Below, in pieces: positions 7,771-63,245 of a DNA stretch of 64,000 bases (its first letter is position 1; every line of letters starts with the position of its first letter). Origin of the DNA: a bacterium (GTDB lineage Bacteria; Patescibacteriota; Minisyncoccia; UBA6257; 02-FULL-45-10c). The stretch covers positions 2,748 to 66,747 of the forward strand of contig JAUYKI010000017.1 of assembly GCA_030700025.1 (NCBI GenBank), written 5' to 3'. Below the pieces are notes generated by a model. That model was not told the origin of the DNA. It made no database searches and saw only the letters and a list, made by a program, of their open reading frames with translations. Made by a program: the position numbers and the translations under genes.

Positions 7771-8440
7771 TGATGATGGGCAACAGTTGCTTTGCAGTGT
7801 TATGAGGTATTAGCCTCTAGCCATAAAGTGGCTGTCTGTTCTGCGTTGCTTCTGTTGCCGTTGACTCGGAATTTTGTCAGGGCGGGTGGACACCGGGTTA
7901 GCTCGCGCGGCTGAAAGAAAGTCAGCCTTCTATTCCCGGCGCCACCTTTGGCAGTGAGATGGTTGTAACACCCCACCGGCCAGCAGCCTGCCCCGACTTT
8001 ACGTCGGGGTCCCCTCCGGCTTGTGACCGGAGGATGATTCCAAATAGCAGTTGCCTTTCGCAGATTATGAGCCTATTGGGCTCTGACCAAAAAAGTGGTC
8101 TTCTTTCTGTTAGCTTCTGTTATTGGATGATTCCGCCCCGACGCTTTGTAAGCCGTCGGGGATACTGCTACTTGGTGAGCCGGTCCTAAGGTAGCGAATC
8201 TTTGGTTTCCTACCCACCAAGATGATGCTTCTTATTGTAGTTAAGGAACGAAAGTAGCGCGATGTGACTCTGCAACTGTCCAGTTTGTGTTGCATCGGAG
8301 CGGAATACCCGGGTGGACGGCCCCAAGGCTCCTACGGCTCTTTGCCTGATCTCGGGTTCTTCCCGACGTCAACCAAGCATTGTAAGAACCAAAGCCAGCA
8401 TCGCTAAGTAAGGATAGCACACCTCAAACCCTTTGTCAAT
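7771..8440. ncRNA. Candidate large structured noncoding RNA of unknown class.
   Basis: About 670 nt at roughly 55% GC have no ORF over 76 aa in any frame. Multiple stable hairpins are seen: ggcaacag...ctgttgcc, ggctgaaagaaagtcagcc, ccccgac...gtcgggg twice, and cctccggcttgtgaccggagg. A minus-strand terminator sits at 7741-7770 and a possible minus-strand promoter TTGACA-17-TATCCT near 8405-8439. Confidence 0.35.
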
Positions 8441-8603
8441 AGCGGGTTTGCAATCTCTAAATTCTAATCCCTAATCTCTAAATAAACTCGAAGCTCAAAT
8501 ATCCGGATTTTTAAATTTTATTTTTGAGATTGGACATTGGAAATTGTTTAGAAATTAGGGTTTAGGAATTAGAAATTTATCAAAACATGTTATTATTAAT
8601 TCC

Positions 8604-9473: not shown

Positions 9474-9551
9474 GCAGTTTCACTTTGATAAGCCCTCCGA
9501 CGGGTTCGACAAGCTCACCGCGGGCAATCTTGGGGTAAAGGAGGCGCTAAC

Positions 9552-9984: not shown

Positions 9985-11694
9985 ATGAATTACAACCAGA
10001 CCGTGCCGGAGCTTTTTGCCCAGACAGTTCAGCGATATCCGAATAAAGACGCGATTCTTTTCCATGGCCGGTTTACTTACTCGGATTTGGATAAGATGTC
10101 AGATGAATTTGCCAAAGTGCTTTTGATGAACGGCATTTACAAGGGCGACCGGGTTTCGTTACTGTTGCCCAATAGCGTACATTTTGACGTGGCCTTTTTA
10201 GGCATTTTGAAAATCGGAGCGGTAGTGTCGGCGATGAATCCGTTGGTCAGCACTCCGGAAATTCTGGAGATGGCGAAACAAGCGAAGCCCACAATGATCA
10301 TTACCTTGGATATCGCGCCTTTTTACGCGCATAACCAGGCGATTTACAAGAGCTTGAAGCCCAACCAGATTATGATGGTTTGCGATTTGCGGGATTATTT
10401 CTCGCCGATTTTAAAGATTCTTTATACGCTGAAAACTTGGCGGGATAAACACTTCTTGGGAATCAGCTCCGAAGATGGCAGGCGGTCGGTATATTCGTGG
10501 GGCTATTGGAAGCGCGACAGTTTATCACAGAAATATTTGTTGCCTGACAATCCCACAATGGCAGCATTAACGAAAAAGAATTGTCCGACTCCGGACGATT
10601 TGGCTGTTTTGCAATCTACCGGCGGAACGACTGGAATTCCGAAGTTTGCTATGTTGAGCCATCGGAATATCATCAGTAACACTTTGCAGGCCTTGGCGCA
10701 TGTTAATGCCACGGGCCAGCTGGTTACCAAGGATTCTATTTTCTTGGGCGTTTTGCCGTTTTTCCATGTTTTCGGGCTTTCGGTTTGCCTGAACTTGGCT
10801 TTTGCGGTTGGCGCGACTGTGGTGATTATGCCGAAGTTTGACAGCGCGGAAGCGCTAAAGCTGATCAAGAAATACGGAGTGGATATTTTTCCGGCGATTA
10901 CCCGGATGTACGCGGCTTTGGTCGCGTTCGGATCTAAGGATTCGGAAAAATGCCGGACAATGTGCGCTAGCTTGAGGCTGTGCTTTTCCGGAGCCGGAGC
11001 TTTGGATCTGGCGGTAAAAGCCCAATGGGAAAAAATGACCGGAAAAGAAATCACCGAAGGCTACGGCTTGTCCGAAGCGTCGCCGATCGTTTCTTTTAAT
11101 CCGATTGGTGAAGGAAAAACCGGAAGCATGGGCACCTTGGTTCCGGATACGGAATTGAAATTAGTTCACCAGGATACCGGCGAACCGGTTGGCTGGGATG
11201 AATCTGGTGAATTGTGGATCCGTGGCCCGCAAGTGATGATGGGCTATTGGCAGAATGAAGAAGAAACGCGAATGGCGCTCCGCGAAGGCGGATGGCTGGC
11301 TACCGGCGATATCGTCCGATATCACGACGGATATTTATGGTTCGTGGACCGGAAAAAGGACATGGTGAAGATTAACGGAGAGAATGTTTATCCCAAGTCC
11401 ATTGAAGATGTAATCCGTACCTGTCCGATAGTGGCTGATGTGGCGGTGTTTGGCGTGCCAGATAAAGAAACCGGCGAACAGCTGGTAGCGTGCGTAGTTT
11501 TAAACGATAAAGCAGAGGGCGCGCTGAAATACACCGATTCGGCCTTGACTGACGCGATACACGGCCATTGCCGCAATAACCATCTGGCGGGAATCAAGAT
11601 TCCCAAGCGAGTGGTATCGGTTCCCGAAATTCCCAAAACGGTTGTAGGAAAAGTTCTGAAGAGAGTATTGAAAGAAAACCTTTTAAAAAACTAA
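9985..11694 (+). CDS. AMP-dependent synthetase/ligase (acyl-CoA synthetase family).
   Basis: The AMP-binding motif STGGTTGIPK, the downstream GYGLSE motif and a C-terminal conserved Lys region are seen. SD gggagg is present. Confidence 0.8.
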   Translation: MNYNQTVPELFAQTVQRYPNKDAILFHGRFTYSDLDKMSDEFAKVLLMNGIYKGDRVSLLLPNSVHFDVAFLGILKIGAVVSAMNPLVSTPEILEMAKQAKPTMIITLDIAPFYAHNQAIYKSLKPNQIMMVCDLRDYFSPILKILYTLKTWRDKHFLGISSEDGRRSVYSWGYWKRDSLSQKYLLPDNPTMAALTKKNCPTPDDLAVLQSTGGTTGIPKFAMLSHRNIISNTLQALAHVNATGQLVTKDSIFLGVLPFFHVFGLSVCLNLAFAVGATVVIMPKFDSAEALKLIKKYGVDIFPAITRMYAALVAFGSKDSEKCRTMCASLRLCFSGAGALDLAVKAQWEKMTGKEITEGYGLSEASPIVSFNPIGEGKTGSMGTLVPDTELKLVHQDTGEPVGWDESGELWIRGPQVMMGYWQNEEETRMALREGGWLATGDIVRYHDGYLWFVDRKKDMVKINGENVYPKSIEDVIRTCPIVADVAVFGVPDKETGEQLVACVVLNDKAEGALKYTDSALTDAIHGHCRNNHLAGIKIPKRVVSVPEIPKTVVGKVLKRVLKENLLKN

Positions 11695-11715: not shown

Positions 11716-11740
11716 AACCCCGATAAATGTCGGGGTTTTT
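11716..11740 (+). terminator. Rho-independent terminator after the acyl-CoA synthetase gene.
   Basis: The hairpin aaccccgataaatgtcggggtt is followed by ttttt. Confidence 0.65.
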
Positions 11741-11747
11741 AATTTAG

Positions 11748-11890
11748 AAAGAGTGTTTTATTCTCCCGCTACTGTTCAAACTCCCGGCGAGAGTTTTCAC
11801 TGGGTCTCGGGCTTCGCTCTTTCCGCCTTTGGCGGAAAACCCTGCCCGCTCAGCCCTCAGCCCGCGCTACGGAGAATAAAACACTCTTTC
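11748..11890. mobile_element. Family-2 MITE-like element, copy A (143 nt), with a perfect 18-bp TIR aagagtgttttattctcc / ggagaataaaacactctt.
   Basis: The interior ccgctac.gttcaaactccc...ttttcactgggtctcgggcttcgct...ccctgcccgctcagcc...cgcgctacgg matches the inverted copy at 36627-36806. Confidence 0.75.
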
Positions 11891-11904
11891 TAATTTTTAT
11901 GGAA

Positions 11905-11936
11905 ATAAAAAAACCACGGCTTAACGCACCGTGGTA
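11905..11936 (-). terminator. Minus-strand terminator for the small-peptide operon.
   Basis: On the minus strand, the hairpin ccacggtgcgttaagccgtgg is followed by tttttttatttcc. Confidence 0.6.
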
Positions 11937-11996
11937 TTGATTAGCGCCCTTGCTAATGCCCGCAAGAGTAAAGGGTTATGCCGAAACGGGCCCTGA

Positions 11997-12116
11997 TCAG
12001 GAATAGTGGCAGGTCAGGTTCAGGGCCATTACCAGAAGGATCATCGCGCCCGCCACGCCCACTATCACCCAGGCGACCTCCTGGCTCACCTTCTTCTCGT
12101 TCAGATACTTCATCAT
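11997..12116 (-). CDS. Small single-TM peptide, 39 aa (MMKYLNEKKVSQEVAWVIVGVAGAMILLVMALNLTCHYS).
   Basis: It is not in the ORF track because it falls under 60 aa. An SD ggaggctgcac lies before the ATG. GC content is about 58%, far above the surroundings. It sits between the upstream small membrane ORF and a terminator. Confidence 0.4.
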   Translation of the reverse strand: MMKYLNEKKVSQEVAWVIVGVAGAMILLVMALNLTCHYS

Positions 12117-17530: not shown

Positions 17531-17630
17531 GTTTTTCCCCGTGCTGAGCTTGTCGAAGCGCTCGATTCACTTTTCAATCTGCGTTAGCAATACTATTATG
17601 ACAGCCGTTAAGTGTCAATTGTTAAAAGTT

Positions 17631-27146: not shown

Positions 27147-27280
27147 TAAACAAACACTCCGCATAGCGGGGTGTTTTACTTTGGCTTGTCCTGCCTGCCC
27201 TGAGTCGTATCGAAGGGAGTTTGCTGGCAGTGAGCTTGTCGAATCTGCCGAAGGGGCTTGCGTTGAGCAAGGTCGAAGTG

Positions 27281-27762: not shown

Positions 27763-28041
27763 CGTAGGGGTCTGTCATAAAATTACTGGCTTAATTTGGA
27801 GGCCTGGATTTGAGACAGGTACGAGACGCGACGACGACAACGTGTCTGAATGAAGGACACGTTGAGGAGGAGTAACGAAGTAGCTGGCCAAAGATAGGCC
27901 TCCCCGAAGGGCCAAAGCATTTTATGGGCTGCGACTGCGTCACTCGTCGTCAATGTAGCTAAAGCTACAATCTCCTCCTCGTTTCTTGTCTCGCTCCAAA
28001 AATGCTATGGTAAATAAGTCATTAATTTTATGACAGACCCC
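27763..28041. repeat. Family-1-related structured element, copy 2, with a different terminal inverted repeat (ggggtctgtcataaaatta / taattttatgacagacccc).
   Basis: It shares the core cgacgacga...gttgaggaggagtaacgaag...ccaaag...aatttt...tcgtcgtc...gtagctaaagctaca with copies 1 and 3. Confidence 0.65.
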
Positions 28042-28957: not shown

Positions 28958-30130
28958 TTGAAAACTGATAAAAAGGCGGTTACGATGGAACCGAAAAAGG
29001 GCTTGCGTGATGTTCCGGCCGGACAGACCCGGCTTTGCTTGTTGGATGAAGCCAACAGCGAACTTTATTATTGCGGTTATTCTATCAGGGATTTAGTTGA
29101 GCATTATCCCTATGAAGCCGTGGCTTATTTGATGCTTCACGGCGAATTGCCTTCCGAGTCGGAATTAAAAATTTTCACCCGTCGCCTGGTGAATAACGCA
29201 TGGAATATGCCTCAAGTGGTAGTTAAGAGTTTGGAGTTAAAAACTCCATTCACTGATGCCCATCCGATGGATAAATTGTCACTGATAATCCGGGCTGACG
29301 GCAATACTCACGGCATTCCGTTTTCTACGCCATCGTTAGAGAATAATTTGGACTTAGCGAAATCTTTGATTGCCCGGTTGCCTTTAATGGTTGCTTTGCT
29401 GGGCGGCGCTAGCCGGAATTATTTTGACTATTTTGATCCAGACCGCACGCTGATGGAAAATTTTGTAGATTCTTTGCGGATCCCGAACGAAGGCGGTTTG
29501 GCAACGAAATTAATGAATGTCGCGTTTATTCTTTACGCGGAACATGAATTCAACGCCGGGTCTTTCGCGGTTCGGGTGGCAGCCAGCGCGCACACCGATA
29601 TTTATTCCGCGGTTTTGGGAGGATTAGGAACTTTGCGCGGTACTCGCCACGGCGGAGCCAATGAAGAAGTAATGAAGAAGATGCTGGAAATCGGAACACC
29701 GGAAAAAACGCGCGAATATTGCGACCGATTTTTGTCTCAGCCGGGAGCGCGCTTGCCGGGATTTGGCCACGCGGTTTATACCATCGGCGATCCGCGGGTA
29801 GCGGTTCTCCGCCCGCTGGTAAAAGATTTGTCGGTCCGAAAGAACGATATGCGCTGGTATGAAATTGCTGTCGCGCTGGAAGAATATATGGCGGAGCGTT
29901 CTCGGGGAAAGTCTAAGCCCTTGCCGGCTAACACTGACCTTTGGACGGCGCCGTTATATCACTTGCTGGGCATCCCGATTCGTCTTTTCACCCCGCTTTT
30001 CGCCGCCTCCCGGGTTTCCGGCTGGTGCGGACATTATTTGGAAGTGCGGCATGTTTACAACGAACCGATTCTTCGGCCGCGCGCCGAATATGTCGGATCC
30101 GCTCCTCGGAAAGTAATCCCTCACTCTTGA
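28958..30130 (+). CDS. Citrate synthase family protein (citrate/2-methylcitrate synthase-like).
   Basis: GFGHAVYTIGDPR and LMLHGELPS motifs are seen in a 390 aa protein. The last four codons and the stop codon come from a palindromic element. Confidence 0.75.
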   Translation: MKTDKKAVTMEPKKGLRDVPAGQTRLCLLDEANSELYYCGYSIRDLVEHYPYEAVAYLMLHGELPSESELKIFTRRLVNNAWNMPQVVVKSLELKTPFTDAHPMDKLSLIIRADGNTHGIPFSTPSLENNLDLAKSLIARLPLMVALLGGASRNYFDYFDPDRTLMENFVDSLRIPNEGGLATKLMNVAFILYAEHEFNAGSFAVRVAASAHTDIYSAVLGGLGTLRGTRHGGANEEVMKKMLEIGTPEKTREYCDRFLSQPGARLPGFGHAVYTIGDPRVAVLRPLVKDLSVRKNDMRWYEIAVALEEYMAERSRGKSKPLPANTDLWTAPLYHLLGIPIRLFTPLFAASRVSGWCGHYLEVRHVYNEPILRPRAEYVGSAPRKVIPHS

Positions 30131-30191
30131 AAGAATTAACCTCGCTTATAGCGAGGTTTTTTATAGCAACGTTATTTCAAAAGTGAGGGAT
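30116..30191. repeat. Palindromic element atccctcactcttgaa ... ttcaaaagtgagggat (76 nt). It overlaps the 3' end of the citrate-synthase-like gene and supplies IPHS and the stop codon.
   Basis: The inverted repeat has one mismatch and an inner hairpin cctcgcttatagcgagg. The same termini occur at 63107-63245 and 36742-36767. Confidence 0.7.
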
Positions 30192-33060: not shown

Positions 33061-34599
33061 ATGGGACCGGAAGAAGCAGATCAGTTAGTTCAGAAATATT
33101 TTAAGCGAAAGGGATTGCCGTTAATGCCAGCAGTTACCTTTGATGATGTTTTAGTTCGGGAAGGAATTTCCAGCATTGCTAGCCGGAGCGACATTACTAA
33201 TTTAAAGGCTCAGCTGGCAAAAGATTTTTGGCTGAATATTCCGGTAGTGTCCGCTAATATGGACACGGTTACGGATTCGCGTATGGCAATTGCTTTGGCT
33301 CGGCTGGGCGGTATGGGTTTCATCCATCAGTTCGTTTCGCTGGAAGACCGGCTGGAAGAAGTCAGCAAGGTTAAGCGGGCGGACAATATGGTGATTGAAA
33401 ATCCGGCGACCATTCGTCCGGAAGCAACTTGGGCGGAAGCGCAAGCGGTAATGGCGGAACGGGAAATTTCCTGTTTGCTGGTTACTGACGCGCAAGGAAT
33501 TTTGGCCGGCATCTTAACGTCGCGCGATACTCAATTTTGTTCCGACCCCAACGCTTTAGTTGGAGATTTAATGACTCCGAAAACCAGAGACGGACACTTT
33601 GTTTTGCAAACTGCCCGTCCGGATATTTCCAATGAAGACGCGGAAAAAATGTTAAAGCGTTCCAAGGTAGAAAAACTTCCTTTAATAGATGATGAGGGCA
33701 AGGTGGTTGGATTGATTACGGCGAAAGATATTTTAAAGCGCCGGATGTTTCCCAACGCGGCCCGGGACGAAAAGGGCCAGCTGTTAGTTGGCGCTACTTT
33801 GCGGTTCAGCGGAAATTATTTGGAAGAAGCGAAAGCGTTGATCGACGCCGGAGCGGATGTATTGCTGTTAGATACGGCGCGAGCCAGTTCTTCATCAGAG
33901 GACGGAATTTTGGCGTCGCAGTATTTAACGCCCGGGAAAATTGTGGAATTAGCCGCGGAAAGAACCGCGAAAATTAAATACGTGTTTCCAAAAATAGTTT
34001 TAGTGGTTGGTAATACTGCCAATCCGGAAGCGGTGGCGCTTCTGGCAAGCCGTGGAGCGGATTGCGTTAAAATCGGAATTGGGCCGGGAGCGGGATGTAA
34101 GACTCAGGAAGTAGCCGGAATCGGTTCGCCTCAGCTTCACGCGATCGCGCAATGCGCGGCGGTGGCCAGAGAAATCGGAGTTTGTTTAATGGCTGACGGC
34201 GGAATTAGAAATGGCGGTTGCATGGTTAAAGCGCTAGTTGGCGGAGCAAATGTGGTGATGCTGGGAAGTTTGCTGGCGGGAACCGACAAATCTCCGGGCC
34301 TGCTGGTTTGGAATCGAAAGGAAAATAAACTGGTTAAGAAATACCGCGGTTCGGCATCCACTGAACATCAGCTGGATAGGATTAAAGTTGGGGATTTGCA
34401 CGCGGTTAGAACGTCAGAGGGCGAAGCCGGAGCGGTTCCTTACATGGGCACGACGGTTTCGCTGATTGATGATCTGCTTGGCGGATTGCGGTCGGGCATG
34501 AGTTATGTCGGCGCCCATAACCTAGAAGAGCTTTGGCAGTTCGGCAGATTTGTTTGGAGAACGCAGGCCGGAATTGAAGAAGGAAGACCCCGAATATAA
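33061..34599 (+). CDS. guaB: Inosine-5'-monophosphate dehydrogenase with a CBS pair.
   Basis: The IMPDH signature VKIGIGPGAGCKTQEVAGIG (catalytic Cys), a CBS pair insert and SD aaggag are seen. Confidence 0.85.
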   Translation: MGPEEADQLVQKYFKRKGLPLMPAVTFDDVLVREGISSIASRSDITNLKAQLAKDFWLNIPVVSANMDTVTDSRMAIALARLGGMGFIHQFVSLEDRLEEVSKVKRADNMVIENPATIRPEATWAEAQAVMAEREISCLLVTDAQGILAGILTSRDTQFCSDPNALVGDLMTPKTRDGHFVLQTARPDISNEDAEKMLKRSKVEKLPLIDDEGKVVGLITAKDILKRRMFPNAARDEKGQLLVGATLRFSGNYLEEAKALIDAGADVLLLDTARASSSSEDGILASQYLTPGKIVELAAERTAKIKYVFPKIVLVVGNTANPEAVALLASRGADCVKIGIGPGAGCKTQEVAGIGSPQLHAIAQCAAVAREIGVCLMADGGIRNGGCMVKALVGGANVVMLGSLLAGTDKSPGLLVWNRKENKLVKKYRGSASTEHQLDRIKVGDLHAVRTSEGEAGAVPYMGTTVSLIDDLLGGLRSGMSYVGAHNLEELWQFGRFVWRTQAGIEEGRPRI

Positions 34600-34711
34600 A
34601 TTTCTAATTACTAATTTCTAATTACTAATGACTAAGTTCAAAATTCAAATCCCGCAATTGCGGGATTTTTTATTTGAAAATACTTCAAAATTGATTTAAT
34701 ATATTTTCAAC

Positions 34712-34785
34712 GGGCCGTTAGCTTAGTGGCAGAGCACCCGGTTTGCATCCGGGAGATGCGAGTTCGATTCTCGCACGGTCCACCA
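34712..34785 (+). tRNA. tRNA-Ala (anticodon TGC).
   Basis: 74 nt with a G3:U70 pair, the anticodon loop uuUGCau and an encoded CCA. Confidence 0.85.
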
Positions 34786-36566: not shown

Positions 36567-36626
36567 AAATTTTCGCCTCGGCTTTTTGCCGGGGCTTTTT
36601 ATTTCTACGAAAGCAGTTTTTGAGAA

Positions 36627-36806
36627 AAGAAACTTTATTCTCCGTAGCGCGGGCTGAGCCTGCCTGCCGGTAGGCAGGGGCTGAGCGGGCAGGGTGTCCC
36701 GCGAAGCGGGACGAGCGAAGCCCGAGACCCAGTGAAAACTTCCCTCACTCTTGTACAAAAGTGAGGGACTGGGAGTTTGAACGGTAGCGGGAGAATAAAG
36801 TTTCTT
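36627..36806. mobile_element. Family-2 MITE-like element, copy B (180 nt, inverted relative to copy A), with a 17-bp TIR aagaaactttattctcc / ggagaataaagtttctt.
   Basis: Its reverse complement aligns with 11748-11890. It carries two nested palindromic inserts: ccctcactcttgtacaaaagtgaggg at 36742-36767 and cctgcctgccggtaggcagg. Confidence 0.75.
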
Positions 36807-36808
36807 TT

Positions 36809-37543
36809 CTAGCGTGTTTTAGCAATTACCAACGCGATTATTTTTTTGGCGCCGGCGGATTTTAAAGTTTTAGCGGCTTCGCGGATAGTGGCTCCGGAAG
36901 TGTGAACGTCGTCAACGAGAAGGATATTTTTTCCCACTATCAGTTCTGGGTAATTAACCGCGAAGCAGTTAATCACATTTTGCGCCCGTTCTTCATGATT
37001 CTTGGCAAGCGACTGGGTTTTAGTATTTTTAATTCTTTGAATCGGCTCCGTTAAATCTAATTTATAAAAATCAGCAACAATTTTCGCAATCAATTTTGCC
37101 TGATTAAATCCGCGTTCTTTTTCCCGATCTTCGTGAAGCGGGATTGGAACCACGGTAAAATTTCTAATATCTAAATCCAAATTTCTAAGATACGAGACTA
37201 GAATTTCGCCTAATGGCCTTTGAAGCCGCTGCCATTTTTTAAATTTAAATAATTTCAGCAAAGTCCGGATGGAATCGTTATCGTAATTAGTGGCGGCGGC
37301 CAAAAGATAAGGAGAATCTTTATGGCAGACCTTTTTATTATCCGCCAGGCGCAATCCGCAAACCGGGCAAAAAAGCGAAGTATTGAGGCGGATGCCGGCC
37401 CAGCACTCCGGGCAAAGATCGCCTTCAGCGTTTTTTTGGCAGTTTAAGCAGAGCGGAGGAAAGAGGATGTCCCACAGCCAGGTTTTCATTTTTTGGAGAT
37501 AGCTCATGTCTGTTATACTAATAATAGATTTAGAATAAGGCAA
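36809..37543 (-). CDS. comFC: ComF family protein (double zinc ribbon plus phosphoribosyltransferase domain).
   Basis: N-terminal Cys clusters (CLNCQ...CPECW...CPVCG) and the PRTase motif ILLVDDVHTSGATI are seen. Confidence 0.75.
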   Translation of the reverse strand: MPYSKSIISITDMSYLQKMKTWLWDILFPPLCLNCQKNAEGDLCPECWAGIRLNTSLFCPVCGLRLADNKKVCHKDSPYLLAAATNYDNDSIRTLLKLFKFKKWQRLQRPLGEILVSYLRNLDLDIRNFTVVPIPLHEDREKERGFNQAKLIAKIVADFYKLDLTEPIQRIKNTKTQSLAKNHEERAQNVINCFAVNYPELIVGKNILLVDDVHTSGATIREAAKTLKSAGAKKIIALVIAKTR

Positions 37544-37750
37544 TGGATTCCAATAACTAATTTCTAATATCTAATTTCTAATAAAATGACCGAAATCACA
37601 AACCACAAGCACCAAATCACAAACAAGCACCAATGACCAAAATCATAAATTTAAAACCCGTTTGGAATTTCTATTATTTGAATTTAGAATTTGTTTGTAA
37701 TTTGAGATTTGTAATTTGGAATTTTATCAGAAATTGTAAATTGTAAATTT

Positions 37751-44557: not shown

Positions 44558-44559
44558 TG

Positions 44560-44831
44560 AACCTATCCCAATAATAATCCTCAAACGCGTTGCTAGTATA
44601 AATTGAAAATTTCTAGGCCTGCCGAGGAGCTTGTGGCCATAGCCACAGTGAGGAGGCAGAACAACGAAATTTTCAATTTAGACAGCAACCCCAAGAGGGA
44701 TACAGCCAATTTTATCCATAACGTCGTTGCTCGTCGAAGATATAGCTTACGCTATAAATCTTCTCCTCGCGTCTAGTTCTGAATAAAATTGGCTAATATC
44801 GCGTTATGGGATTATTATTGGGATAGGTTCT
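44560..44831. repeat. Family-1 structured repeat element, copy 3 (272 nt), between pilC and the pilin gene.
   Basis: It is almost collinear with 5805-6093, including both terminal inverted repeats and the internal core. Confidence 0.75.
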
Positions 44832-44932
44832 ATGTTACACTTATTAAAGGTCGGAAATAAGATGTAATACCAATATACGAATTATTCGTATCATTAGTAT
44901 GAATTAGTATATTAGTATCTCATTATAAATAT

Positions 44933-57610: not shown

Positions 57611-59665
<2,055 letters not shown>

Positions 59666-62373: not shown

Positions 62374-62486
62374 AAGCCGCGATCGCTTTAATTAATAATA
62401 TTATTTCCATTTATTATGCATGGTCGTTATTATAAAAATATATTACGTAGAATCGCTTTGATCGCGATCTGCTTCTAACGGGATGG
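62365..62486. repeat. 5'-UTR palindromic element tcccgttagaagccgcgatcgc ... gcgatcgcgatctgcttctaacgggatgg. Its left arm overlaps the gatA stop and its right arm supplies the next gene's start codon.
   Basis: A roughly 22-bp inverted repeat with a TAGAAT-like -10 box inside. It is of the same family as 1846-1963 and 40395-40522. Confidence 0.6.
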
Positions 62487-63121
62487 CAAAACCACCAGAA
62501 ACAAGCCCTCCTCCTTCCGGATTAGATTTTATAATCTTAATTTTTCTTTTCATGGCGATCTTGCCTATGATCGGAGGATTTTTGGTTTATTTAGGCGATC
62601 CGAGCGGCTTACTGACCCGGATAAAAGAATTTTTGGCTCCCTACCTGCTTAATAATTTATGGTGGATGAAAATTGTATCGGTTTTAATATCCGGATTATT
62701 CGTCTGGGGAATAGCCCATATTTTATCTAAATTGAATTACGTGAATCTGCGAACCGAACAATTTTTAAATATTTTGGGCAGTTCGGGATTAAGTCGGCGC
62801 CGGTCTTTGCGCGCCTGGAGGCAGATTCAAGCGAGATTGGCGGTTGAAGATCCCCAGCAATGGAAAATAGCTATTTTAGAAGCGGATGAGATTTTAAACG
62901 AAGTTCTAAAATTATCGGGTTATTTGGGAAAAATGGAGGATAAGCTGGATTTAATTACTCCAGCGCAGTTGGCCAGCATTGAAGACATTAAAATAGCGCA
63001 TCGGATTCGTAATCAGATTTCCGGCAGCCCGGCCTTTGAATTATCGCGGGAAGTCGCCGAAAGAACCGCTCATATTTACAGAAGGGCGTTTGTGGAAACG
63101 AATTTAATCCCTCACTCTTGA
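62483..63121 (+). CDS. Membrane protein, hypothetical. The C-terminal IPHS and stop codon come from a palindromic element.
   Basis: 212 aa with 2-3 TM helices. It ends in aatccctcactcttga, the same sequence that ends the gene at 28958-30130. Confidence 0.5.
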   Translation: MAKPPETSPPPSGLDFIILIFLFMAILPMIGGFLVYLGDPSGLLTRIKEFLAPYLLNNLWWMKIVSVLISGLFVWGIAHILSKLNYVNLRTEQFLNILGSSGLSRRRSLRAWRQIQARLAVEDPQQWKIAILEADEILNEVLKLSGYLGKMEDKLDLITPAQLASIEDIKIAHRIRNQISGSPAFELSREVAERTAHIYRRAFVETNLIPHS

Positions 63122-63245
63122 AGCGCTGCGATTTCTGAACGCTTGTTGTAATATACTGTTTTTTATCCCCCAGACTTTATTTACGGATATTTAATGCCCC
63201 ATAGAGAAATCAACTAGGCGTTTCGGCGCTTCAAAAGTGAGGGAT
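63107..63245. repeat. Palindromic element atccctcactcttgaagcgc ... gcgcttcaaaagtgagggat (139 nt). It is the larger member of the IPHS-stop family.
   Basis: The 20-bp inverted repeat has one mismatch. The termini are identical to those of 30116-30191. Confidence 0.7.

Follow-up and report, generated by a model that had tools for sequence, protein, structure and literature searches.

A dispersed repeat family with perfectly paired but variable arms and exchangeable palindromic hairpin tips in Patescibacteria-like genomes

Two inverted copies between housekeeping genes

The window, by which we mean the whole 64,000-nt stretch of DNA analysed here, includes genes for aminoacyl-tRNA synthetases and type IV pili and has the look of a Patescibacteria-type genome. 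The closest relatives of its PilM protein are named Pacebacteria, Harrisonbacteria or Patescibacteria, and the protein encoded at 9985-11694 is 56% identical to its nearest relative. Two copies of a small palindromic element, which we term family 2, lie in this window next to housekeeping genes (Table 1). Copy A starts 6 nt past an intrinsic terminator and is flanked by facing terminators, one on the plus strand (11716-11737) and one on the minus strand (11913-11935). Copy B lies between a terminator and a ComF-like gene (36809-37543, minus strand), whose stop codon is overlapped by the last 2 nt of the element. No promoter was predicted inside either copy. The flanks of A and B are unrelated to each other, as are the neighbouring genes, and both orientations of the family occur on one replichore. 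At gathering thresholds, Rfam returned tRNAs alone for the whole window, and around A and B no credible match appeared at E ≤ 10.

A sequence-only reading had described A and B as inverted copies of a MITE-like element with perfect terminal inverted repeats (TIRs). Both perfect TIRs are present, within wider limits than reported and with arms of 23 bp in A and 21 bp in B, and alignment places the two copies in mutually inverted orientation, 24.9 kb apart. They have an interior in common, in four blocks of 94-100% identity, with a longest exact run of 28 nt. The string TTATTCTCC occurs four times in the window, exclusively at the four arms, against 0.83 occurrences expected, and two occurrences of the 20-nt core CACTGGGTCTCGGGCTTCGC compare with 0.01 expected. 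The TIRs had also been taken as shared, which is true of the inner 10 bp, TTTATTCTCC, and of an outer AGAAA; a 6-bp block inside the arm is wholly different, reading GAGTGT in A and AGAAAC in B, and the opposite arm mirrors the change (ACACTC and GTTTCT, respectively).

Apart from this arm block, A and B differ in three places: the stem of one hairpin (slot X), the loop of another (slot 1) and a 20-nt palindrome. Over the 42-pair structure, eight pairs have changed on both sides and none on one side only, all pairs being Watson-Crick; this value was reached in one of 500 shuffles. Folding z-scores for both strands of A and B ranged from -7.2 to -11.1 relative to shuffled sequence. As the earlier reading had it, copy B contains a 26-nt and a 20-nt palindrome that are missing from A, and the 20-mer recurs exactly in a copy of another repeat, family 1.

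Table 1. Features of family 2 and associated palindromic units. Coordinates refer to the window unless a relative's locus (L175, L179, L180) is named; R1 is the covariance model built from copies A and B.
Feature	Position	Strand	Remarks
Copy A (150 nt, basic form without extra palindromes)	11744-11893	+	R1 190.8 bits
Copy A, 5' arm TTAGAAAGAGTGTTTTATTCTCC	11744-11766	+	23 bp, perfect complement to 11871-11893
Copy A, 3' arm GGAGAATAAAACACTCTTTCTAA	11871-11893	+	pairs with 5' arm
First CGCTAC, just inside the arms of copy A	11767-11772	+	direct repeat, second at 11865-11870; GTAGCG on opposite strand
Hairpin slot 1 of copy A (AAACTC-CCGGCGA-GAGTTT)	11778-11796	+	predicted fold
Conserved block TCACTGGGTCTCGGGCTTCGCTC of copy A	11797-11819	+	part of the 28-nt run identical in A and B; partly kept in C and D
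Hairpin slot X of copy A (TTTCCGCC-TTT-GGCGGAAA)	11820-11838	+	predicted fold
Block ACCCTGCCCGCTC of copy A	11839-11851	+	first 12 nt (ACCCTGCCCGC) invariant in five of five copies
Copy B (188 nt), inverted relative to copy A	36623-36810	-	R1 227.4 bits
Copy B, arm AGAAAAGAAACTTTATTCTCC	36623-36643	+	pairs with 36790-36810, 21 bp, zero mismatch
Copy B, arm GGAGAATAAAGTTTCTTTTCT	36790-36810	+	partner of 36623-36643 arm
20-nt palindromic unit CCTGCCTGCCGGTAGGCAGG in copy B	36659-36678	+	between two GGCTGAG repeats that are uninterrupted in copy A
Hairpin slot X of copy B (GTCCCGC-GAA-GCGGGAC on the plus strand)	36696-36712	+	fold
26-nt palindromic unit CCCTCACTCTTGTACAAAAGTGAGGG in copy B	36742-36767	+	fills the loop of hairpin slot 1
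Second 20-nt unit CCTGCCTGCCGGTAGGCAGG	6007-6026	+	inserted in family-1 copy 1 (5802-6092)
Copy C	L175 8434-8579	-	R1 68.2 bits, E = 1.4e-17; between MetRS and a conserved non-coding region
Copy D	L179 4013-4142		R1 60.7 bits; between AlaDh and a 160-aa gene
Copy E	L180 5837-6053		R1 26.3 bits; same site as D
5' arm composition, copy A: TTAGAAAGAGTGT-TTTATTCTCC			23 bp
5' arm composition, copy B: AGAAAAGAAAC-TTTATTCTCC			21 bp
5' arm composition, copy C: GGAAACC-TTTATTCTCC			17 bp
5' arm composition, copies D and E: GGAAACCCC-TTCTCC			15 bp

Family 1 comprises three units of 275-290 nt in the window (5802-6092, 44559-44832 and 27767-28041), with terminal stems of 30-38 bp. The terminal stem of the third is completely different, and its interior is conserved (e.g., CACRTTGAGGAGG..AACGAAG, CCC..AAGGG and CGTYRCTCG). 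RNAalifold counted 22 compensated pairs among the units, which had no Rfam match. Family 1 looks like a structured element of no recognised kind.

Five copies at four loci

Using R1, we found only A and B in the window, the next best matches being generic hairpins of at most 24 bits, and there was no match over 678 kb of unrelated loci. Three further copies (C, D and E) were found among the relatives' loci that carry the nearest homologues of the window's genes, and whose gene order is strongly conserved with it. Family 2 thus has five copies at four unrelated loci in three related genomes, namely that of the window and those of two uncultivated relatives. The site orthologous to A is empty in L175 and in L178, where the spacer is merely 95 nt; the site orthologous to B is empty in L179, L180 and L181, and that orthologous to C is empty in the window. 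Since the copies occupy non-orthologous sites and the orthologous sites are empty, this is a genuine dispersed and variably present family, and local duplication is ruled out. A further rival is a duplicated regulatory or terminator region, with no element in its own right; the earlier reading would have turned to a duplicated regulatory region had A and B been the only copies, with no target-site duplications. This rival would fit the count of just two copies in 64 kb, both adjoining terminators. It is contradicted by C, D and E, which lie in other contexts and genomes, including a divergent promoter region, and the unrelated flanks and neighbours of A and B also speak against it; we regard it as highly improbable. 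Judged by sequence, a TTGACA-17-TATAAT promoter lies downstream of D and E and points away from them, and a hairpin with a T-rich tail is also found on their downstream side.

Searches of larger collections returned little. The core 20-mer CACTGGGTCTCGGGCTTCGC had no match in 185,579 GTDB species genomes and none in IMG/VR, and its three matches in JGI metagenomes, inside one high-GC gene, were dismissed as chance; in hindsight, CGCGCTACGGAGAA would have been a better census probe. At the protein level, a six-frame concatenated query against 5.8 billion proteins returned no ORFs lying over other copies, its candidate list possibly being swamped, and the open frame through A, searched exhaustively with HMMER, matched just three unrelated repetitive proteins. 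Among 1.84 billion representative proteins, the open frames through the element have no relatives. On the sequences compared, family 2 is a dispersed family that appears restricted to a Patescibacteria-like clade.

Further copies are likely. In sample SRR13727534, Logan contigs (k=31) with the window's proteins break off at 11816, in the family-2 core, and at 36707, in slot X, with a start at 36760. All three breaks fall inside family-2 elements, even though the longest exact run common to A and B is 28 nt. The start at 36760 directly follows the single asymmetric base of the 26-nt palindrome; this one data point would fit the presence of both orientations of that palindrome in the sample. Contigs of the same sample also start or stop at 5819, in a family-1 arm, and at 34731, in a tRNA. 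Breaks at repeats of this kind suggest further copies or population variants.

All five copies follow one plan. They are non-coding, measure 130-217 bp and have perfect terminal stems of 15-23 bp with the consensus GGAAAC(C)...TTCTCC. In each, the stem encloses direct repeats, unpaired conserved blocks and two or three hairpin slots. All five copies share the innermost part of the arm, TTCTCC/GGAGAA, outside which the sequence is variable yet always perfectly complementary; the motif GAAAC(C) recurs in the arms of B, C and D. A direct repeat CGCTAC lies inside both arms in A, B, C and D, the 3' one being GACTAC in E. The unpaired blocks conserved across copies include AACCCTGCCCGC and ...CTCGCTCAC..., and they have been kept between genomes whose neighbouring proteins share 56-65% identity. 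Copy C has the same overall predicted fold, with a hairpin CTCGCT/AGCGAG at the position of slot 1. Slot X holds GTCCCGC-TTC-GCGGGAC in B, GTCCCGC-TAC-GCGGGAC in C, CCGCC-TGC-GGCGG in D and a 36-nt palindrome in E.

Two features of this plan bear on what the element is. First, the four distinct terminal stems (76 bp, with D and E sharing one) and the slot-X hairpins of the five copies (43 bp) are Watson-Crick throughout. The lack of any G-T pair in these ~119 bp of family-specific stems, counted by eye, argues for symmetry at the DNA level rather than selection at the RNA level. Second, conservation is higher in the interior blocks than at the termini, and arm sequence varies on both arms together, with eight two-sided and no one-sided changes between A and B and the same behaviour in C and D. 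This does not sit well with a strict reading as a classical MITE, which would derive from an insertion sequence (IS) by deletion, have TIRs bound by a DDE transposase and leave a target-site duplication of fixed length. The size, the non-coding nature, the TIRs and the intergenic location do fit such an element, as do the several unrelated loci, the arm motif of B, C and D, and a clean 6-bp direct repeat, TCATTC, around D and E. The flanking direct repeats are inconsistent, however: B and C have none, and at A the candidate TTTTTA is offset, adjoining the right end and lying 2 nt away on the left.

Genes for a suitable enzyme were also missing from the DNA sampled. No transposase, reverse transcriptase, Y1/HUH or GIY-YIG domain was found in the 52 window ORFs scanned (out of 53 non-overlapping ORFs of at least 80 aa), nor were any found in ~110 kb of the relatives through precomputed Pfam annotation; altogether, no IS or transposase was found in ~170 kb of the window and the relatives' loci. 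The absence of the core 20-mer from the species genomes and IMG/VR, with chance matches only in JGI metagenomes, likewise counts against the classical MITE. With its termini the least conserved part and its duplications inconsistent, an ordinary MITE is a less likely explanation, and we consider it rather improbable. Family 2 is MITE-like in the loose sense only.

Turnover of small palindromes at hairpin tips

The comparison of D with E is particularly informative. The two loci, L179 and L180, are 80-85% identical in AlaDh, and a segment of L179 (3840-4660) is ~99% identical to its counterpart. This near-identity over 800 bp indicates a recent exchange, so that D and E represent one insertion event, not two. 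The backbone and flanks of the two copies are identical, and three hairpin swaps or insertions are the sole differences between them within the ~99% segment. In slot X, the 13-nt CCGCCTGCGGCGG of D is matched in E by a perfect 36-nt palindrome; a 40-nt insert containing a hairpin follows CCCTGCCCGC; and CTCG is replaced by TCCCTCACTCTTGAATAAAAGTGAGGGA, which is the 26-nt unit of copy B in a different slot. Two more hairpin-sized gaps occur just upstream of D/E within the same segment. Compared with A, moreover, B gains the 20-mer as a clean addition, and family-1 copy 1 carries it as an insert that copies 2 and 3 lack. The slot tips are therefore replaced or extended by palindromic modules much faster than point substitutions accumulate. 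That hairpin modules change faster than bases between D and E is the strongest support for the suggestion, made from the window alone, that tiny palindromic units move; they do come and go, as the D/E differences, the relocation of the 26-nt unit in E and the clean additions of the 20-mer all attest.

The 20-mer CCTGCCTGCCGGTAGGCAGG is not confined to this clade. Exact matches were found at 15 positions in 12 IMG/VR stretches, with GC contents from 33% to 70%, and in at least 120 stretches of species genomes, whereas two control hairpins of matched composition and structure had no matches at all (0 and 0). The matches listed include three isolates and cover Bacteroidota, Ignavibacteria, Chloroflexota, Nitrospirota, Planctomycetota, Omnitrophota and many Patescibacteria. 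A perfect-palindrome variant, CCTGCCTGCCGGCAGGCAGG, was found at 42 sites and an A-T variant at one. By comparison, the 26-nt palindrome was absent from IMG/VR, even with a relaxed loop. No literature beyond the Ssn paper discussed below was found for these sequences or their typical translations.

Among the listed matches, the flanks of the 20-mer are random save at position -1 (G in 71%, A in 23%) and position +1 (G in 55%, T in 27%), and none has a target duplication. A flanking inverted repeat of at least 6 bp is present in 10.5% of the listed cases, compared to 2% of control positions. The 20-mer often lies at the apex of another hairpin: its sites include terminator loops, GTCATTCCCGCGAAA|GCGGGAATC hairpins and CCCTCTCC..GGAGAGGG hairpins, and some copies of the unit have another at their exact centre. 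Its orientation relative to genes is unbiased among the listed matches (25 co-oriented, 34 opposed), and no neighbouring protein family is common to the 132 listed loci. The sequence of the unit can be written (CCTG)2CC|GG(CAGG)2, a repeat structure that makes repeated independent origin possible.

A DNA-level process that favours hairpin apices may account for the entry of such palindromes. A bolder extension is that palindromes of 20-40 nt (e.g., CCTGCCTGCCGGTAGGCAGG and CCCTCACT..AGTGAGGG) form an unrecognised insertion class, whose preferred target would be the apex of existing hairpins, including their own copies, and which would enter by a single-strand or replication-linked mechanism at work in many bacterial phyla and their phages. 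Scaffolds like family 2 would then be "Russian-doll" products of apex insertion that later spread as units. We offer this as a speculation and think it unlikely in this general form.

The 26-nt unit also has longer relatives. Its arms, ATCCCTCACTCTTGAA and TTCAAAAGTGAGGGAT, bracket longer inserts at 30116-30191 and 63107-63245 in the window and at 16985-17051 in L180, one of which holds a terminator. The unrelated genes at 28958-30130 and 62483-63121 both encode proteins ending in ...IPHS*, and the left arm of a unit of this type contains the stop codon; the unit thus appears to supply both C-terminus and stop codon.

A foldback reading, its rivals and known systems

Taking the evidence together, we favour, at about even confidence, the view that family 2 is a dispersed DNA repeat of foldback type, non-autonomous and restricted to one lineage, and that its behaviour would be nearer to that of REP/REPIN, ERIC or IS200/IS605-derived palindromes than to that of a cut-and-paste MITE. 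Four observations favour this view: the copies are not syntenic, their arms are strictly Watson-Crick, the spacers they occupy appear untranscribed, and modules turn over at the DNA level. A trans-acting enzyme encoded elsewhere could recognise the element in folded form, as single-stranded or cruciform DNA, and propagate it. Handling as folded DNA would account for arms that keep their shape but not their sequence. Alternatively, one arm might be copied from the other.

The serious rival is a gene for a structured non-coding RNA, present in multiple copies and encoding a small or a cis-acting RNA; the ends of that RNA would form a long closing helix, and its hairpin tips would vary freely. 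Unpaired conserved blocks combined with compensated stems are the hallmark of such RNAs, and family 2 has both. The strongly negative folding z-scores (-7.2 to -11.1, on both strands), the conservation of the blocks between genomes at 56-65% protein identity, the T-tailed hairpin downstream of D/E and the neighbouring family 1, with its 22 compensated pairs and an entirely different closing stem, all point the same way. What weighs against an RNA gene is that ~119 bp of family-specific stems contain not a single G-U pair, that no promoter was predicted in A or B, that A begins 6 nt behind an intrinsic terminator and lies between facing ones, that the copies are non-syntenic with empty orthologous sites, and that no Rfam family matches, even at E ≤ 10. 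On balance we judge an RNA gene possible but doubtful.

Several known repeats come close to family 2. The ERIC or IRU sequences of enterobacteria are imperfect palindromes of ~127 bp, of which longer variants arise through insertions at fixed internal sites. Family 2 resembles them in being intergenic, non-coding, similar in size and palindromic overall, and in having longer variants with inserts at fixed internal sites. However, ERIC sequences are conserved and usually lie in transcribed regions, whereas family 2 has perfect arms that vary between copies, several copies in apparently untranscribed spacers, and inserts that are recurring palindromes. The REP/REPIN elements mobilised with RAYTs (Y1, IS200/IS605-like) are similar in that hairpin shape is kept, no consistent target duplication is made and the elements are intergenic, often between convergent genes. 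The GTAGCG repeat of family 2, which lies on the complementary strand inside both arms, also recalls the GTAG of REP, although we take this as a lead only. Unlike REPs, which are units or doublets of 20-40 nt formed by an imperfect palindrome behind GTAG, family 2 is a multi-hairpin unit of 130-217 bp, and the DNA sampled here yielded neither a RAYT nor a Y1 gene.

Other systems share fewer traits. The Correia or NEMIS elements of Neisseria and the Rickettsia palindromic elements (RPEs) are also small and dispersed, have inverted ends and can supply stop codons or terminators, as the units at 30116-30191 and 63107-63245 may do. In Correia elements, however, the 26-bp TIRs are conserved and a TA is duplicated, RPEs enter genes in frame, and in neither are modules swapped at hairpin tips. 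The GC clusters of yeast mitochondria are small GC-rich palindromes that nest in one another within AT-richer spacers, but they are organellar, differ in sequence and have no larger conserved scaffold. Two further candidates were rejected on sequence, one being a hammerhead or other ribozyme core and the other an integron attC site. The latter are bounded by terminal R'' (RYYYAAC) and R' (GTTRRRY) boxes at cassette boundaries, and the arms of family 2 begin GGAAACC or AGAAAAG and end GGTTTCC or CTTTTCT, next to housekeeping genes.

A precedent for tiny palindromes that cross phyla is provided by the NTS or Ssn-related motifs (SRM), which are short hairpin repeats that are handled in single-stranded form and linked to small GIY-YIG nucleases specific for single strands (PMC11893778). 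Membership in that class was tested with the pattern HGTCWYN(0-2)YYVSBRHN(0-5)WNVSBRGN(0-2)RNCYNB together with a nearby single-domain GIY-YIG gene, and was rejected: slot X of B (TGTCCC) and of E (TGTCCA) fails at the W position, and the window has no GIY-YIG match. By eye, neither the slot-X hairpins nor the 20-mer have the GTCWY 5' flank, and the 20-mer has no shared neighbouring protein family.

Patescibacteria/CPR genomes are regarded as streamlined, with little mobile DNA, and to our knowledge small dispersed repeats have barely been described in them. Such repeats break short-read assemblies and supply stop codons and terminators to genes. Family 2 adds to the known small palindromic dispersed repeats, and the insertion of palindromes at hairpin tips is the more interesting question. 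Perfect pairing maintained despite arm change, together with conserved blocks and fast-changing hairpin tips, points to a hairpin-reading enzyme or a replication process, and the pairs D/E and A/B offer a concrete system for finding it. The 20-nt unit common to many phyla and phages makes one ask how tiny palindromes originate or spread, a question that has recently been answered in part for one other class only, the Ssn/NTS motifs.

Several other repeats and spacers were seen along the way. Hairpins with the conserved loop TGAGCTTGTCGAA and variable stems occur in the window at 9485-9527 (minus strand), 17535-17577 and 27218-27255, and also in unrelated phage and genome contigs (L013, at ~13745, and L048, where the loop carries an inserted 20-mer). 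L175 has a modular repeat, AAACCCAATCGCGGTGAGCGACAAGTGGA-[variable hairpin]-GGAACGGGTTGAGGRAAG, at 8240-8425 and 11880-12060; one such repeat occupies the site orthologous to copy A, and a similar block flanks the 20-mer in L091. The spacer between MetRS and TatD (window ~7740-8440) is 68-81% identical to L175 8768-9107, is partly duplicated in the window and contains a 23S-rRNA-like string, GGTCCTAAGGTAGCGAA; it has no Rfam match and may encode a large minus-strand RNA of a new type. Finally, AT-rich heptamer-like runs (TTAGAAAT, TCTAATT) occur on both strands in many intergenic regions (3358-3404, 8537-8580, 34588-34649, 37548-37587 and 58092-58135) and may be low-complexity sequence of promoter regions.
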